Source: an uncultured Nitrospiraceae bacterium
Lineage (GTDB): Bacteria; Nitrospirota; Thermodesulfovibrionia; Thermodesulfovibrionales; SM23-35
Length of the DNA: 64,000 bases
Direction: 5' to 3'
Assembly (NCBI GenBank): GCA_963727775.1
Contig: CAVSHB010000004.1
Location: 1 to 64,000, forward strand
A program made the translations under genes and the position numbers. Shown here piece by piece: positions 7,027-63,269 of the stretch (within the stretch, counting starts at the first letter, position 1; every line of letters begins with the position of its first letter). The notes under the pieces are model-generated. The model did no database searches, was not told the origin of the DNA, and saw only the letters and a list, made by a program, of their open reading frames with translations.

Positions 7027-7117
7027 GGTTAACAACAGCATCCAGCCGACAGGGGATAACGCTTTTTTGTTTTCAGTCTTAGCTTGATGGCCCGGCGGCT
7101 GATGCTGGTCGTTAGGC
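7027..7117 (+). other. attC site 1 (91 bp)
   Basis: R'' GGTTAAC, arms CAGCATCCAGCCG/CGGCTGATGCTG with an extrahelical base, R' GTTAGGC. Confidence 0.85.
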
Positions 7118-7136
7118 GTCAAAAAGAATAACGAAT

Positions 7137-8024
7137 ATGATCGAAAATAAGAAAACAGATTTACCACCAAAACTTCAAAGTCTTTATAAGACTCGCGAAC
7201 AAAATGCGCTATCGTTCGTCGATAAAAATGATTATAGCGCAGCAGAACGAGAGTATAGAACTTTACTTTCTGAGTTCCTTGCGGCCCAAGGAGCAGCCAC
7301 AAGATACCACAAAGGAGGTATTTATCATCAAATAGGATATTGTTTGTTCTTACAGGAAAAAACTGCGGATGCTTTGAACTATTTCAAGTATGCATTTATC
7401 GAAGACTGCATTAGCGACATCGATTTCGCAAATCTCCCGGCCTATTCTAACTTGCATAATTATTTTAGAATCAGCGCAATAGAACTCGATAATCTAGCAC
7501 AGAGAATAAAAGTCGATACAGATAACAACAACCCGCTAATTTTAAATGCTGAAAGTTATCTCAACGACTATCCTGAAAAAGGGTACGAACTGGGTTCACC
7601 AACAATAGAGAAAAACAAACGAGTCTTCGTAGGTGGCAGTTATAAGAATATTGCCATTCTTAGGTATATTGGGGATAGCGTTCGTGAATGCGATTTCAGC
7701 CCGATGCTGCCAATAGACTTCGAAGTATCCCATGATAAATCTATCTATCCAGATGCCATGTCACTTTTACACAATTGTGGGAGTGCAATTTTTGAAGTTA
7801 CATTTGATTCAGGTCACTTAATGGAAATTGAAAGGGCAAGAAATTATAAATTGTTTCCGAACGAAAATATATTACTCTTATTTCAAAAAAGAAACAATGA
7901 TAGTGAATCTTATGTCACAAAAATGTTATTAGGTGTTGGAATAATACCAGTGGGCTACATGAAGATTGAAGAAATACCGGAACTGGTTAAAGATTTTCTT
8001 GGAAAAATCAGACGGGACATTTGA
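7137..8024 (+). CDS. Gene cassette: TPR-like N-terminus fused to a nucleoside 2-deoxyribosyltransferase/TIR-like domain
   Basis: Lies between GTTAGGC and the complementary GCCTAAC. Helical YHQIGYCLFLQEK..DALNYFKYA, then RVFVGGSY...CGSAIFEVTFDSGHLMEIERA. Confidence 0.65.
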   Translation: MIENKKTDLPPKLQSLYKTREQNALSFVDKNDYSAAEREYRTLLSEFLAAQGAATRYHKGGIYHQIGYCLFLQEKTADALNYFKYAFIEDCISDIDFANLPAYSNLHNYFRISAIELDNLAQRIKVDTDNNNPLILNAESYLNDYPEKGYELGSPTIEKNKRVFVGGSYKNIAILRYIGDSVRECDFSPMLPIDFEVSHDKSIYPDAMSLLHNCGSAIFEVTFDSGHLMEIERARNYKLFPNENILLLFQKRNNDSESYVTKMLLGVGIIPVGYMKIEEIPELVKDFLGKIRRDI

Positions 8025-8040
8025 GACGACACACGAGCAC

Positions 8041-8131
8041 GCCTAACCCAGCGTTCAAGGCGACAGGGATTAAACGTTTTTTGTTTTCGTTCAAGCCTCT
8101 GTGCCCCTGCGCCTTAACTTTATCGTTAGAT
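8041..8131 (+). other. attC site 2 (91 bp)
   Basis: R'' GCCTAAC, GTTCAAGGCGACAGGG/CCCTGCGCCTTAAC arms, R' GTTAGAT. T-rich centre shared with attC1. Confidence 0.9.
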
Positions 8132-8141
8132 TGGAGTAATA

Positions 8142-8669
8142 ATGAATAAATTGCTATCTTGCCTTCTTTTGTTATTTGCCTTCTCAGCTCATGCAGGAGA
8201 ACTGGCATCTGAGAAGCCGATACCGGAACAGGAGAAGAAGAGAGTTGCTGGGGTACTCAAAGATGTGTTAAGTGATAAGACCATCACACAACGCCAGTAC
8301 CAACAAGCAATGGTTTGGTTAAACTCCACACCCTGTAATGGTGTTGATCGCAGCCTGAGTGAATCCAGCAAAAAAGAACTCGCATCCGCAATTTTAAAAC
8401 AAGAGGGATTAGAACGTGTGGATGTCTTGCAATCGTTCAAAAGCGATGGATGGACCATTGTGTACGTAAATACCTATATTTCAGACGAACCTTACCTTTT
8501 CTATTCAGGTAACCCAGCAATGGCGAAACGCCCCATAACGGCATGGAGCGGTGTGGCCTTTGTTTTCGAAACGAGCAAGATCAAGGACTGGGTATTGAAA
8601 AATGCCCCTGGCATTTCTGATCGGTTAGCAAGCTGTTTCGCGTGGCATGTCACTCTGAATCGAGATTGA
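8142..8669 (+). CDS. Gene cassette: secreted hypothetical protein
   Basis: Sec signal MNKLLSCLLLLFAFSAHA, GGAG RBS just after R', two Cys in the mature part. Confidence 0.75.
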   Translation: MNKLLSCLLLLFAFSAHAGELASEKPIPEQEKKRVAGVLKDVLSDKTITQRQYQQAMVWLNSTPCNGVDRSLSESSKKELASAILKQEGLERVDVLQSFKSDGWTIVYVNTYISDEPYLFYSGNPAMAKRPITAWSGVAFVFETSKIKDWVLKNAPGISDRLASCFAWHVTLNRD

Positions 8670-8693
8670 GTCGCTAGTGAAACTCAATGATGA

Positions 8694-8755
8694 TTCTAAC
8701 AAGGCGGATTCACAGCGACGCGCCAGAAGGCGGCGCGTGACCCGCGTCGTTAACC
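8694..8755 (+). other. attC site 3 (62 bp)
   Basis: R'' TTCTAAC, GCGGATTCAC..GCGCC/GGCGCGTGACCCGC arms, R' GTTAACC. Confidence 0.8.
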
Positions 8756-9073
8756 AGCATGAAAATTAATAAAAGGCAAGTGGCATGATCAAAACTATCA
8801 GTGATTTACTCCAAGGACTGAAGAAGATCGAGGAACAGCGCATAGCCTCTTTCATGCCTATACCTCACGCGCCTACTATTGGTGCAATGTATGAGGGTGC
8901 AACACGGACTCTTCTCGATAAAGCACTTTTTGATGGCTTGAATCTCACAATCAGTAATGGCTTTATCAGAAACAGCAAGAATGAGCTAAGCAGGCAAATT
9001 GATTGTATGGTCGCCATTGGAACGGGCACAAAAATTCCCAATACGGATAATTACGTTTATGACGTTTCAGATG

Positions 9074-10439
9074 GGCGCATCTGGGTTCTTCATGGGTCTA
9101 TGCAATATATAGTGGTTTGAGTATCCTATGTTCATGGATGAAAAAGTGTTTTATACAAAGATATTGGGAATCAAGCTGCCTTGGGTTTGTAAAACAGGTT
9201 ATTATGGACGAAGCAACTCAGCGAATCGACATTTATATGGAGCATGAGAAAGATATACGCGTCAGGTGTCCGGAATGTGGTGCGTTTTACGGCATGTACG
9301 ATCACGCACCTGAGCGCGTTTATCGTCATTTGAACACCTGCCAAATGGAAACCTACATTCATGTTCGGCCACCGCGAGTAAACTGCCCTACGCATGGAGT
9401 TAAGCAGATAGAATCGGCGGTTGGTGAGAACGGCTCGGATATGAGTCATGCCTTTGAGAGTCTGGTCATTCGTGTTGCTCAAGAGTGCAGCATCGAGGGT
9501 ACGGCCCGGCTTTGTGGATTGAGTTGGGATAAAGGATGGAATGCTCTGGAGCGAGCGGTTAATCGTGGTCGCGGACGCAAGGTGCATCGCATCCCAAGCC
9601 GTATCGGAGTGGATGAGAAGTCCATTGCGAAGGGACACAAATACGAGTCTCTGGTTTACGATCTTGATGCAGGGACTGTTGAGTTTGTATGGGATGATCG
9701 TGGCCAGGAAAGTCTTGAAAGCTATTACCGGCAGTTTAGCAAGGAAGAACTGTCTGACGTTAAAGCTGTGGCAATGGACATGTGGGACCCGTATATTGCG
9801 GCTACAAAAGCTTATGTACCTGGTGCGGAAAGGAAGATCGTCTTTGATCGTTTTCATGTGATGAAGCATGTTCTGGCTGCGGTGGATGAGGTCAGAAAGA
9901 GAGAACATCGTGAACTTTCGGAGTGCGGAGAGCAAACTTTGAAGGGAACCAGATATCTGTGGTTGTGGAGCGAGGAGAATATTCCATCGTGGCGACGTGG
10001 AGAGTTTGAGGCATTGCGAGCCAAAGACTTGCAGATATGCCGGGCGTGGGCTATAAAAGAGAACCTTCGGCATCTGTGGGAGTATCGGTATGAGGCCCAT
10101 ATGAGAAACTATTTCAAGCGCTGGTATTTTTGGGCGACTCATTCTCGACTTGAGCCTATTAAGAAAGCGGCTAAGACGGTTAAGTCCCATATAGACAATA
10201 TCGTTACTTACGCACGGCATCGCATTACCAACGCCTTGGGCGAGGCAATCAACGGCAAGATTGAGAAAGTTAAACGAATGGCTTGTGGTTTTCGCAATCG
10301 CTCCCATTATAGAACCGCCATTTATTTTCATTGCGGCGGACTGGACTTGTTTCCCAAACCGCCTGCTCAACCAACACTATGCTTTCGAGCAACTTAAACA
10401 CTATCTGTTGGGGGTATCCATTAAAATGTCTGTTCCGGC
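9074..10439 (+). mobile_element. ISL3-family insertion sequence
   Basis: 8-bp TSD TTCAGATG (9066-9073, 10440-10447) and degenerate terminal IRs. Confidence 0.9.
9134..10397 (+). pseudogene. ISL3 transposase with a probable frameshift near 9184
   Basis: CPECG..CPTHG zinc finger, IGVDE, AMDMW, FDRFH, EAINGKI...GFRN. The natural N-terminus MDEKVFYTKILGIKLPW is one base out of frame with FVKQV. Confidence 0.8.
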
Positions 10440-11445
10440 TTCAGATGTGATTGCAGTCGTTGAAGTAAAGAAGAATTTATACGGCGAATTAGAAGATGTC
10501 ATGGACTGGTCACGAGACTTTCAAAATCGAATTTGGGAGCCTCCGGCAAGTCAAGAAATAAATTTGGTGCGGGATGCGTGGCGCACCATCACTGGGCAAG
10601 AACTGCCTGAACGGCAGGATATCTCTTCGTTGCCATATTACTTGGAAATGATATACCACACTCTTGTGGTTGAGGCATCGACACCTGTCAGAATATTTAT
10701 CGGGTATGAGGGATATGTGAGCGAAACCAGTTTTCGTAAAGGGCTAATCAAATACCTAAACGATCTTATCATAGCAGGGAAGCAACAGTTAGGCGGACCC
10801 AGATCGCTTCCTGATGTTATGATTTGTAGAGACTCAACAATTTTCAAATTGAATGGCATGCCCTATCCAGGTCCGATTACAGAGAAAGATTATTGGTTCT
10901 ATTTGGGAAGTCGCGGAATTGACCCACTCCATATCCTACTTGAGGTTCTTTGGACTCGTCTGAGCTATAAATTTGGAATATCATCAGATATCTTCGGCGA
11001 AGATTTGGAAAGCGAAGGAGTCAACCCGTTATTGATGATGAAAGTGGTTCAGCACGGAGAAAAACAGGGATGGGCATATGAGTATTATGAACTCACGGAA
11101 GAAAAACTTCTTGAGGGTAATACGAGTAAGCCTTGGGAGCCAGTTGAAGTTTCTGCGATAGAAGGATCTATATTGTTTGCTCTTGGCAAGAAACATGAAA
11201 TAAATATCAATGAAGATGATTTTGTTGATTATATAAATAGTCAAGGAGCGAATGTAATAGATATCATAAAGGCGTTGTGTGACAAACGACTAATTTATTA
11301 TCAAAATGATGTGATTAAATATTTGACAGATTCTTGTGTTGTAATCTTCTTGCCTGATGGCCGCGCAGTTGCAGGTGACAATAAGTCGGGTCAGATGACA
11401 AGATGGATGCTTAAGCAAGAAAACAATAAAAAATAAACCATGGTT

Positions 11446-11935
11446 AACACTTATAAGGCCCTGCCCTGTCAAGAGAAAAAACGATCCTGATCGGAAATAA
11501 AATAAAATTCTATTTCTTTTTTTTAAAAGACCATCGCCAGCTCTGACTTGGTTTCAAATGCGGCGTTAGATCAATGTCTGCACCAAACACTTATCGAGGT
11601 TCAATAGCCATGAGAAAGAGAACTGTTTTCACAATCTCTATCCCCGGCGACAGTGGAGAGAGCAATTGCCCTTGTTCTCCACGACCTAGAAACACTTATA
11701 AGGCCCTGCCCTGTCAAGAGAAAAAACGATCCTGATCGGAAATAAAATAAAATTCTATTTCTTTTTTTTAAAAGACCATCGCCAGCTCTGACTTGGTTTC
11801 AAATGCGGCGTTAGATCAATGTCTGCACCAAACACTTATCGAGGTTCAATAGCCATGAGAAAGAGAACTGTTTTCACAATCTCTATCCCCGGCGACAGTG
11901 GAGAGAGCAATTGCCCTTGTTCTCCACGACCTAGA
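11446..11935. repeat. 245-bp tandem duplication (11446-11690, 11691-11935) of the IS110 right end
   Basis: Two consecutive copies, identical on reading, each starting AACACTTATAAGGCCCTG and bounded by AACA microhomology. Confidence 0.92.
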
Positions 11936-11944
11936 AACAATTTA

Positions 11945-12210
11945 GTACCCTTGTACCGTCCTATTCAAAGGTCTGGTTCAGGTCAGTGGCCTCATCCAGT
12001 TAGTATCAGGCTCGGGTAAGGGGCAGAACCTTAACAATCTTTATATGTTATGAGGGACCGGATGTCCTAATCAAAGCGTATTTGCGCCGGGCATAATATT
12101 CCAGGATGATCGAAGGGCAGTCGAAGCTGCAAACATATGATGTTTACGAGCATCTATCGGACTTCACCCTAATGGCGCCAGTTAGACGAACAGGCTCACC
12201 CGGTCCCAGC
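11945..12210 (-). ncRNA. Putative bridge/seek RNA of the IS110 element (two homologous stem-loop modules)
   Basis: Two modules GAGCC-UG-guide-UAACUGG...CUUUGA(U/A)UAGGAC. Guides are UGUUCG (attC-like) and UGAUACU (exact circle-junction match). Confidence 0.7.
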
Positions 12211-12211
12211 T

Positions 12212-13258
12212 TTATTTCGCAAAGAATACTTTAGGATTAAACACCTCCTTTTTCTTGAGGATATTATAGACAGCCCTTGCAAGCTTATGAGCAAGGATGG
12301 TCAGAGACTTTGCCTTGCCGTGCTTTCGCTCCAGCTTTGCGCGGTATTTTACGGCTTCTGGGTTTCTCCTGAGGAAAAGCACAGCAACTTCGGAAAAGGC
12401 CCATTTCAGATGGGCATTGCCGATCTTCTTGCCGGATGCCCCGATTATTTTCCCAGCCGACTCCTTGGCGGATTTCACCAGTCTGCAGTATGAGACAAAA
12501 TCCTGTACGCGAGGGAAGCGGTTGATATCATGTATCTCATAGAGGATGGTGAGGCCGAGGATCCTTCCGACGCCTGGAATAGAGCGGAGGCGGAAATAGG
12601 AATCGGCATCATGCACTTTCGCAATAAGAGAGAGTTCATGTTCGAGATGGTTTAGGAGTTTATCGTAATGCTCGATAAGGGTGATATCGAGCTCTATGCT
12701 TTTTTGTACGCTGGGATCGGTGAAGCGGTCGGCAACGCCTACTTTGATTCTGTCGCATTTCCTTGCGATCCTTCCCATATCGGCGAAGTTATACTGGTGA
12801 TTGGTGTTTTGGATATGGGCAATGAGTTCAGCCCTTTTTCTTGCGAGGTGAGTGCGCCGCCTGAGCAGATCTCTGGTGGAGCGCATATCGGAAGGATAAA
12901 CATAGGCCATGGGCATCATGCCGCCCCGAAGCAGGGCTGCTATCTTATATGCGTCTATTTTGTCGTTCTTGGCTTTGCCGCCATGGATGGCTTTCATATA
13001 GAGAGCATGGCCAAGGACGAAGGAAATATTCTCTTTACAGCAGAGATCGGCGAGCCAGTACCAGGTGAAGATGCACTCAACGGCAACTACGATGTCCTCA
13101 CGATATGGCGCGATCGTCTTGAGAAAGATGTCGGGGTCTGTCTTGATGTCCCTATGCAGGACGATCTTTCCTTCCTGGTTGAGGATGCAAAGGTACATAG
13201 TCCTTGCGTGAAGATCGATACCGCAGTAAAATTTGTGCTGCTTGATGTAAAATCTCAT
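12212..13258 (-). CDS. IS110-family DEDD recombinase/transposase
   Basis: CGIDLH, VAVEC, KNDKIDA, LRSIPGVG, KESAGK (catalytic Ser), GNAHLKWAF. AGGAGG RBS precedes MRFY. Confidence 0.93.
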   Translation of the reverse strand: MRFYIKQHKFYCGIDLHARTMYLCILNQEGKIVLHRDIKTDPDIFLKTIAPYREDIVVAVECIFTWYWLADLCCKENISFVLGHALYMKAIHGGKAKNDKIDAYKIAALLRGGMMPMAYVYPSDMRSTRDLLRRRTHLARKRAELIAHIQNTNHQYNFADMGRIARKCDRIKVGVADRFTDPSVQKSIELDITLIEHYDKLLNHLEHELSLIAKVHDADSYFRLRSIPGVGRILGLTILYEIHDINRFPRVQDFVSYCRLVKSAKESAGKIIGASGKKIGNAHLKWAFSEVAVLFLRRNPEAVKYRAKLERKHGKAKSLTILAHKLARAVYNILKKKEVFNPKVFFAK

Positions 13259-13340
13259 TTGAGGCCTCCTTTTGGTAAATGATTTCGGTTCCTGAATCAT
13301 ACCTGATTCGGGTATGGTTCAGGGGGGCCTTAATGAGTAT

Positions 13341-13430
13341 CAAAGGCATCGAGAGGGACGCGGGAACAGCCATCTTTCTTTTTCATTCTTTGCGTGGTTG
13401 CTCCCGCGCCCCTCATGCCCGGCGTTCGGT
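13341..13430 (+). other. attC site 4, distal part (R'' stranded at 11442-11447)
   Basis: GGCATCGAGAGGGACGCGGGA/TCCCGCGCCCCTCATGCC arms, R' GTTCGGT. Confidence 0.85.
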
Positions 13431-13618
13431 TCACAATATGACAAACGAGAACGAAGAAATTGAGTTTGATTCGAAAACTGGATGGTATTTTGAGAGCCTT
13501 ACTTTTCGTCCGGGACATGGCCTTGCGGCCGATGCACTCTTTCACGATCATAACAACCGAAAACTCTGCCTCAGCAGTAGCGTTCAGTGGGTAACCATGA
13601 TCGGGAAAGCGAGGCGAA

Positions 13619-14095
13619 ATGACTAAGAAGAATCTGGCAATGATAATGGAGTGGATTCGGCCTACCGCCATAGGAGTTGTTATTTTTGTCGCCTACTATT
13701 TTGGCCATGATGCGATATCGCGATTTCATATTCTAGGTCCATTCGTAGTCATGCTCATGTCAGGCACTGTGGCCTTTGAATCTCTGAAATTGGGAGAAGT
13801 GGCCTCTGTGATAATTGGCTATGAACCCCATCGTGCTTATCAAATTCAATCGGGTCTGTCCAATGCGGCCACCGCCATCACGGCCTTGCTTGTTTATGTC
13901 CTGGATTGGGGGCGATATGCGGATGCCACCATCGTTACAGCGATGTTGATGTTCTTTACTTTCTCGGCTGCAAATCACGTCGCCACAGCCATCATGGAGG
14001 GGAATATGAAAACTGTCAATTTACTGCGCCCGGCCATGGCGTTGTTATTGATTGGAATTCTGCTTCCCCCTATGATCAAAGCACTGACTCAGTAA
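13619..14095 (+). CDS. Gene cassette: multi-pass membrane protein of unknown function
   Basis: About 5 hydrophobic segments and a YQIQSG motif. Bracketed by GTTCGGT and the complementary ACCGAAC. Confidence 0.72.
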   Translation: MTKKNLAMIMEWIRPTAIGVVIFVAYYFGHDAISRFHILGPFVVMLMSGTVAFESLKLGEVASVIIGYEPHRAYQIQSGLSNAATAITALLVYVLDWGRYADATIVTAMLMFFTFSAANHVATAIMEGNMKTVNLLRPAMALLLIGILLPPMIKALTQ

Positions 14096-62616: not shown

Positions 62617-63258
62617 ACCGTAAACCTTTATTCATCAAGGCTTAGCTTCTCACGAAAAAAATCAACCTGGATCGCCATGCGGGCTTCCGTTTCGGTCTCA
62701 ATCCTTTATTCATCAAGGCTTAGGTTCTCACATAGATAAGATCACAGACTACCTGGTCTTTATTTAAGTCTCAATCCTTTATTCATCAAGGCTTAGGTTC
62801 TCACTTATCCCGATCGCGCTCAAGGGAGTTGCATATCGGGGTCTCAATCCTTTATTCATCAAGGCTTAGGTTCTCACTTGAACGGAACTCCTTTTGATTT
62901 CAGTATATTCAGTCTCAATCCTTTATTCATCAAGGCTTAGGTTCTCACCCCAAAGCAGGTGATTTCATAATCGTAACTTATTGATTTAGCGTCTCAATCC
63001 TTTATTCATCAAGGCTTAGGTTCTCACGAAGCGAGCATTTCCAGATGTACCCCGGTGGATATACGTCTCAATCCTTTATTCATCAAGGCTTAGGTTCTCA
63101 CCATCAAAGGCGGGGATTGCCGATGCGGATTTTTACAGGTCTCAATCCTTTATTCATCAAGGCTTAGGTTCTCACCTAAAGGATTACATGGCTCGCCATG
63201 GCTTATTGTGTTCAAATCAATGTCTCAATCCTTTATTCATCAAGGCTTAGGTTCTCAC
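62617..63258 (-). CRISPR. CRISPR array: 8 identical 37-bp repeats + 1 degenerate, 8 spacers of 34-46 bp
   Basis: Plus-strand repeat GTCTCAATCCTTTATTCATCAAGGCTTAGGTTCTCAC at 62695, 62768, 62841, 62912, 62991, 63065, 63139 and 63222, with a degenerate copy at 62617. The minus strand ends ATTGAGAC. Confidence 0.97.
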
Positions 63259-63269
63259 GACAAGGAAGC

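Follow-up and report, generated by a model that had tools for sequence, protein, structure and literature searches.

The closest described systems are IS621 and ISCro4 (PMC11208160, PMC11208158, PMC13626964), which, as far as the accessible text of these reports goes, the element described here resembles in its DEDD plus Tnp recombinase and its predicted junction promoter, and also in having target and donor loops, which are predicted to base-pair with the two DNA strands about a 2-bp core and whose handshake dinucleotides match the partner DNA. It is also like the IS1111-attC group and its seekRNAs (ISKpn4, ISPst6, ISPa21, ISPa25), for which the available parts of PMC11187229 describe a 3' non-coding region, an attC target and subterminal repeats. 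A further likeness is to CazIS110-1, where, according to the available sections of 10.1101/2025.10.25.684509, two kinds of target-reading RNA unit cooperate. Multi-branch donor loops are mentioned in the accessible text of PMC11208160, and one locus with several predicted donor loops in that of 10.64898/2026.08.14.744561. How IS110 elements depart from their sites, and how work is shared between short seek RNAs and full bridge RNAs, are disputed in the literature.

In the window, that is, the whole stretch of 64,000 nucleotides that was analysed, an IS110-family element lies in an attC R'' box. We propose that a bridge RNA with three loops is encoded in its 3' non-coding end: loop 1 would choose the site, loop 3 would bind the joined ends and loop 2 would read the target flanks, though not for choosing the site. 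We judge this composite model equally liable to prove right or wrong as a whole. The model is based on sequence, conservation, stem covariation and covariation between guides and DNA, and its parts differ in strength: that loop 1 is the target loop and loop 3 the donor loop is in our estimation very probable, that loop 2 reads target DNA is probable, and the division of labour among the loops hangs in the balance. The features are as follows.

12212-13261, minus strand: gene for an IS110-family DEDD recombinase of 349 aa, start codon ATG at 13261 (PF01548, PF02371, NF033542)
13325-13342, minus strand: left end, with core TG (13342-13341), ATACTCAT and the 8-bp subterminal inverted repeat TAAGGCCC (13332-13325), from three genome copies
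11693-11717, minus strand: right end, inner copy, with TTGACA (11717-11712), the repeat GGGCCTTA (11706-11699), TAAG and core TG (11694-11693)
11448-11692, minus strand: tandem repeat (245 bp) of the right end's 3' part, spanning the internal TG (11939-11938) to the end; missing in copies B and C
11442-11449, plus strand: left half of the split attC, made up of the R'' box GGTTAAC and an A; the cassette gene that ends at 11436 has its stop 5 bp before it
13343-13430, plus strand: rest of the split attC, a hairpin and R'-like GTTCGGT (empty site 96 nt, -21.3 kcal/mol)
7027-7117, 8041-8131 and about 8695-8756: intact attC-like sites, upstream in the window
12054-12207, minus strand: module 1, predicted target-binding loop, with outer stem (12207-12197/12064-12054), inner stem and a long variable hairpin
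12180-12187, minus strand: module 1 5' guide GUCUAAC(U), the complement of core G and right flank, which reads as an attC R'' box
12070-12079, minus strand: module 1 3' guide ACGCUUUG (left flank and core), then handshake AU (the left end's first two bases)
11949-12021, minus strand: module 2, second target-like loop
12006-11998, minus strand: module 2 5' strand AUACUAAC(U)
11974-11966, minus strand: module 2 3' strand AGACCUUUG, with handshake position AA at 11965-11964
11825-11948, minus strand: module 3, predicted donor-binding loop, outside the coordinates given in the preliminary description
11942-11933, minus strand: module 3 5' strand AAUUGUUUC(U)
11839-11833, minus strand: module 3 3' guide AUAAGUG (right end and core)
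11832-11831, minus strand: module 3 handshake UU (the right flank's first two bases)
11784-12030, minus strand: closing helix (12030-12024/11790-11784) enclosing modules 2 and 3

The recombinase residues D15, E61, D100 and D103 could be read off the sequence and S268 aligns with the catalytic-serine motif of IS621, giving a protein with a DEDD RuvC domain and a Tnp domain with catalytic serine; overall, its similarity to the IS621 protein is weak (E 5e-5). Three copies of the element are present in the genome, B and C each with at most 2 substitutions relative to the window copy, and their comparison fixes the ends at TG followed by ATACTCAT (13342) and at TAAG followed by TG (11694). The left end is common to all three copies, with one substitution in copy C. 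Once joined, these ends would give a predicted junction promoter, either TTGACA-17-TGATAC or TTGACA-18-GATACT. No circle junction was present in the genome assembly, the promoter and terminator scan returned nothing exceeding shuffles, Rfam gave no match at gathering score in the guide-RNA region, and no relative of the element was found in viral contigs. Three RNA runs of one study share 5-8% of words, and the contigs, mostly 85-95% alike, come from relatives and show neither ends nor strand; they were given no weight as evidence. In copy C the donor-loop inner stem is split by a 1135-bp element (G000:C1:1531236-1532370) with CTAG duplicated; this element has four copies in the genome, and its protein is presumably IS630-like. 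The tandem duplication of the right end in the window copy (11446-11939) begins at an internal TG-TTT and keeps the true right end, and the core TG of the duplicate (11449-11448) adjoins the attC R'' box. A similar duplication occurs in relative L074 (2/126 insertions). It resembles the half-match repeat expansions described in the accessible text of 10.64898/2026.08.14.744561, and slippage at the shared TGTT may be an alternative origin.

Rejoined flanks of the window copy and of copy B fold like an attC, with the element inserted at the 3' border of the R'' box, while those of copy C lack an attC-like hairpin (attC-like in 2 of the 3 own copies). Junctions of the attC branch carry AAC at 72 of 78 sites and the strict RYYYAAC at 33 of 78, and 37 of the 78 empty sites have an attC-like hairpin compared to 29 of 234 shuffles. 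The empty site is thus an attC with a fixed insertion position. The preliminary description was right in placing the element in an attC-like site and in aiming module 1 at the R'' box. The surroundings form a small gene-cassette array (7027-14095), in which the split attC and the three upstream attC-like sites share the same orientation. The third cassette, which has DUF6602 at its start, is broken by an ISL3 element, and an IS200 and two Mutator-family transposases are nearby. No integron integrase scored above the family cut-off in the genome; the best integron-integrase-like match (G000:C1:926212-928957) is below the cut-off, is interrupted by a stop and lies near a stretch 83% alike to the attC used by copy B. 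Elsewhere, the window contains the 5' part of a group II intron (61-1900, with Rfam D1-D4-2 at 1048-1162 on the minus strand) beside a reverse-transcriptase-like ORF fragment and transposase-like ORFs, these labels having been given by eye, as well as a CRISPR-like array (62841-63260) with six copies of a 37-nt repeat, unlike spacers and a period of about 74.

For comparative analyses we started from 221 relative loci, of which 205 have a recombinase complete to its C-terminus and 153 a recognisable right end, resulting in 126 distinct insertions without N, 107 of them with both ends. Four loci (L083, L151, L203 and L222) were dropped after an anchor check, leaving 122 insertions that include the three own copies and span 52-100% protein identity. 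The best relatives were found in Nitrospirota records, and the set extends to Binatia, Planctomycetota and delta- and gammaproteobacteria. Element ends were searched with patterns from the attC-branch family, the left core being TG by definition, so elements with divergent ends are missing from the set; conservation of the right-end TTGAC is inherent in the end-finding pattern and was not counted as evidence. A distant branch (28 loci, 28-35% identity) provided 20 distinct insertions with a right end, 17 distinct RNAs and, among these RNAs, 13 with a left end, and its targets are not attC R''. Agreement between guides and DNA was scored as observed matches versus permuted pairings, with kinship handled by tree-independent pairs. 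In the distant branch two registers were allowed, for observed and permuted pairings alike, with module 3 as null control. Three loops are present in 122 of the 126 attC-branch insertions and in all 20 aligned distant ones, so that the architecture is three-looped rather than bispecific.

The preliminary description of this DNA had proposed two loops, with the slot UGUUCG of module 1 reading the target and the slot UGAUACU of module 2 reading the donor. Its motifs are all in place (GAGCC-TGTTCG-TCTAACTGG at 12197-12178 and CTTTGATTAGGAC at 12076-12064 in module 1; GAGCC-TGATAC-TAACTGG at 12013-11996 and CTTTGAATAGGAC at 11970-11958 in module 2), both modules and their structure are conserved, with compensatory changes in the stems across the 122 relatives, and the region probably does encode a bridge- or seek-type RNA 3' of an IS110 recombinase with a TG core. 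In the window copy the slots do match, at 7/7 positions of the junction and 4/6 of the target, yet this is no better than chance. Slot 1 agrees with the target at 241/696 positions versus 247 permuted (p 0.91; tree-independent pairs 6:9), and slot 2 with the donor at 419/728 versus 424 permuted (p 0.95; tree-independent pairs 1:2), being exactly TG plus left end in 13 of 104 elements. Covariation of the slots with target flanks and element ends had been put forward as a check, and among the 122 relatives neither slot covaries. Furthermore, the T of slot 2 is a stem base and not a guide, because position 12008 pairs with 11962 with compensatory changes (TA 73, CG 27, GC 11). Module 1 is indeed directed at the target, but the guide positions have to be moved, since parts that had been called constant are the true guides, and the strand logic has to be revised, in that the 5' strand of every loop would pair to the right of the core, with the top strand. 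The donor role given to module 2 falls away, as that module has no donor relation and there is a separate donor loop, module 3 (11948-11825), a conserved part which, like the 245-bp right-end tandem duplication, was absent from the preliminary description. We regard the two-slot model as having almost no chance of being correct; generally, two-loop models would give the donor role to the wrong loop.

In module 1, the 11-bp outer stem (12207-12197/12064-12054) is present in the MFE fold, and the module taken alone is more stable (z -3.06) than the whole 275 nt delimited previously (z -1.61). Its 5' guide is complementary to core and right flank at 529/696 positions versus 463 permuted (z 9.9), and its 3' guide matches left flank and core at 297/594 versus 213 permuted (z 8.2). 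The stretch CUUUG plus AU corresponds to left flank, core and handshake. Among tree-independent pairs, pairing with the own target wins 22:5 with 12 ties (p 0.0008), and in the distant branch 4:0 (six pairs). The handshake equals the left-end dinucleotide in 99/104 elements of the attC branch and in 11/13 of the distant branch; these bases are comparable to the handshake guides of IS621 described in the accessible text of PMC11208158. The structured non-coding end therefore contains a loop that matches both strands of the target.

Module 3 has its inner stem in the UAGG/CCUC region, and its 3' guide matches right end and core at 618/732 positions versus 571 permuted (z 9.4). An unguided mutual-information scan of 451 columns ranked the pair 11836 and 11696 first, the states among the 122 insertions being AA 83, GG 23, GA 7, CC 5 and TT 3, and tree-independent pairs favour the own donor 10:0 with 22 ties (p 0.001). 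The 5' strand matches the left end partially (519/832, 473 permuted, z 6.4); it is weak in the window copy (4/8) and never matched at position +2 (0/104). The handshake agrees with the right flank at 236/242 positions versus 228 permuted (z 9.6), and in the distant branch at 32/34 versus 23. Module 3 is thus a loop matching the joined element ends, and the handshakes of modules 1 and 3 match the partner DNA, independent changes being scarce within the attC branch (2 and 3 pairs). Site choice by loop 1 and junction binding by loop 3 are inferred from this covariation and from IS621. At the right junction the core is variable (TG 96, GG 16, AG 8, CG 2 among the 122), which would fit a one-sided strand exchange at the core, comparable to that of IS621 when viewed on the other strand. 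In one sub-branch (L041, L045, L152 and L210) all three loops, including the donor-loop handshake, have shifted together to a TG-TA target, and this shift is a natural reprogramming event.

Module 2 shares its scaffold with module 1, and its guides are target-like. No relation of module 2 to the donor was detected (5' strand with left end, z -1.3; 3' strand with right end, z -0.5; tree-independent pairs 6:7). A raw target signal in the attC branch (z 2.4 and 3.0) is gone after relatedness (11:11; 8:8 core-proximal) or module 1 (residual p 0.89) is taken into account, and on that residual module 2 as an independent second site chooser in this branch has no support. In the distant branch it matches the right flank at 55/68 positions versus 41 permuted (n=17, p < 0.0001) and the left flank at 33/52 versus 18 permuted (n=13, p < 0.0001), with tree-independent pairs at 5:0 (six pairs, p 0.03). 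Its guides change together with those of module 1 (23:7, p 0.003), unlike the two scaffolds (9:10), and gene conversion between the modules is therefore disfavoured. Of 94 attC-branch sites, 76 are better fitted by loop 1 and 7 by loop 2, with 11 ties; among 16 distant sites, loop 1 is the better fit at 12. For the window copy, each of the two loops matches 7/11 flank bases of the site. Module 2 is retained from 100% down to 28% protein identity, and a loss in distant relatives, which L142 had suggested, was discarded when the wider set of distant relatives proved to have loop 2.

The handshake of module 2 is the left-end dinucleotide in 18/104 attC-branch elements and in 0/13 distant ones (register chosen by own-flank fit), and its first base is the left end's first base in 99/104 elements of the attC branch and the target's first base in 5/13 of the distant branch. 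Tuning of this handshake to the excision product was not borne out in the attC branch, where loops 1 and 2 would share a net direction because the first base is retained and the second is usually equal in donor and target; in the distant branch it is better called unmatched than excision-tuned, because the target's first base is matched in just these 5 of 13. With respect to structure, the closing helix has three pairs that are canonical in 121/121 sequences and one with four pair types, and module 1 is outside this domain, behind a linker with a family median of 37 nt. The single-sequence fold of modules 2-3 differs from the comparative structure.

Based on these observations, in the first step of the cycle the ends would be joined at the TG core. 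The junction of the resulting circle would serve as a promoter, and transcription from it would pass through the recombinase gene and on into the guide RNA. Loop 1 would act as a separable seek-type module and pair with both target strands, its 5' strand with the right flank and its 3' strand with left flank and core, while loop 3 would pair with the circle junction. With a handshake matched to the donor in loop 1 and one matched to the target in loop 3, strand exchange would be biased towards insertion; donor-matched handshakes are described as favouring insertion and suppressing excision in the accessible text of PMC13626964. Loops 2 and 3 would fold as a two-loop unit in which loop 2 has a shorter, core-proximal target match and a looser handshake, and the most likely role of loop 2 would be to keep hold of the old flanks while the circle forms or strands are transferred directly. 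Use of loop 2 at the old site is favoured because it reads core-proximal flanks only, travels with the donor loop and is without the excision-suppressing handshake. The published sections available to us also report that a target-loop-only RNA works alongside the full RNA in CazIS110 (10.1101/2025.10.25.684509), that circle formation by ISEc11 needs flanking target bases (PMC11187229), and that IS621 excision proceeds with donor loops alone (PMC13626964, 10.64898/2026.08.31.748434). A dedicated excision loop would be unnecessary if, as this last report has it, the donor loops of IS621 alone are sufficient. The first handshake base that loop 2 retains in the attC branch also speaks against its use at the old site.

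Two other explanations of loop 2 have to be weighed against its use at the old site. Loop 2 might be a second insertion guide that broadens the usable attC sites, with loops 1 and 3 unchanged, for which speak the first handshake base retained throughout most of the attC branch, the 7 of 94 sites where loop 2 fits better and the tie at the window's site. However, target matches at positions where loop 1 mismatches number 61 versus 68.5 permuted (p 0.89), the best-of-two score of 709 is matched by 712 in permuted pairings, and the handshake equals the donor dinucleotide in none of the 13 distant elements, so that we consider a second guide unlikely. Still less likely is that loop 2 is a duplicate left over or kept for structure, on which the recombinase docks and whose guide-like letters have no need to pair with DNA; the missing independent target signal in the attC branch and a match shorter than that of loop 1 would suit it, but loop 2 is kept across the full range of protein identity, in the distant branch its letters next to the core vary along with the target, and its letters follow the guides of loop 1 and not its scaffold.

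Extended from this element to its relatives, the reading in which loop 2 serves at the old site would make for a whole IS110 branch with two target loops for separate jobs, one handshake-matched for insertion and the other, with a loose handshake and in one fold with the donor loop, for departure from the old site or copying out of it, which we put forward tentatively, as possible but less likely than its opposite. If true, this would be a natural, RNA-encoded answer to the direction problem of bridge recombination. The branch is also a natural test, with three separately mutable loops and a named member, ISGsu4, and contains at least 8000 protein clusters at E <= 1e-50.

At the level of text, we found none of the bridge RNAs described in the accessible literature to have three loops of which two read the target, although the 86 models of the Evo-PIN preprint could include one, and a two-target-loop RNA is likewise not described in the available parts of 10.1101/2025.05.14.653916, 10.64898/2026.10.21.760802, PMC12288879, 10.64898/2026.03.19.712850 and PMC13604230. 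Compared with the IS1111 elements, the long 3' non-coding region and a top-strand match that comes before the bottom-strand match, the criterion given in the accessible text of PMC11187229, are both present, whereas the subterminal repeats, usually 11-13 bp with extensions of 7 and 3 bp, are 8 bp here, with 14 bases between them at the junction. Among the relatives they are mostly 8-10 bp (11 bp or longer in 21/104). By an indirect comparison, the transposase also stands outside the IS1111-attC group: in the identity matrix of PMC11187229, as far as available, ISGsu4 is 17.4, 17.1 and 17.7% identical to ISPst6, ISKpn4 and ISPa21, respectively, and it is through ISGsu4, at this level of about 17%, that the window protein is set apart from them. 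By eye, 37 of the first 60 residues of the window protein are identical to ISGsu4, and the cluster representative of the ISGsu4-like branch carries the same motifs. Judged from sequence, the element belongs to this ISGsu4-like IS110 branch, apart from the IS1111-attC group, and represents a separate attC-homing IS110 lineage. To the same transposase branch belong ISGsu4, ISGsu5, ISMahy12, ISShfr7 and ISShwo5, known here from their proteins in the accessible supplements of PMC11208160 and PMC11187229; in the latter, ISGsu4 is classed as IS110 and ISMahy12 as IS1111.

Compared with the known systems, then, the element differs from the IS1111-attC group in its second target loop, of which the available text of PMC11187229 has no counterpart. 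In contrast to IS621 and ISCro4, the RNA in the window is 3' of the gene, the guide order is reversed relative to the element, the core, on the element strand, reads as TG and there are three loops, not two. Unlike CazIS110-1, where according to the accessible text one target loop is truncated, the window encodes two different target loops in tandem.
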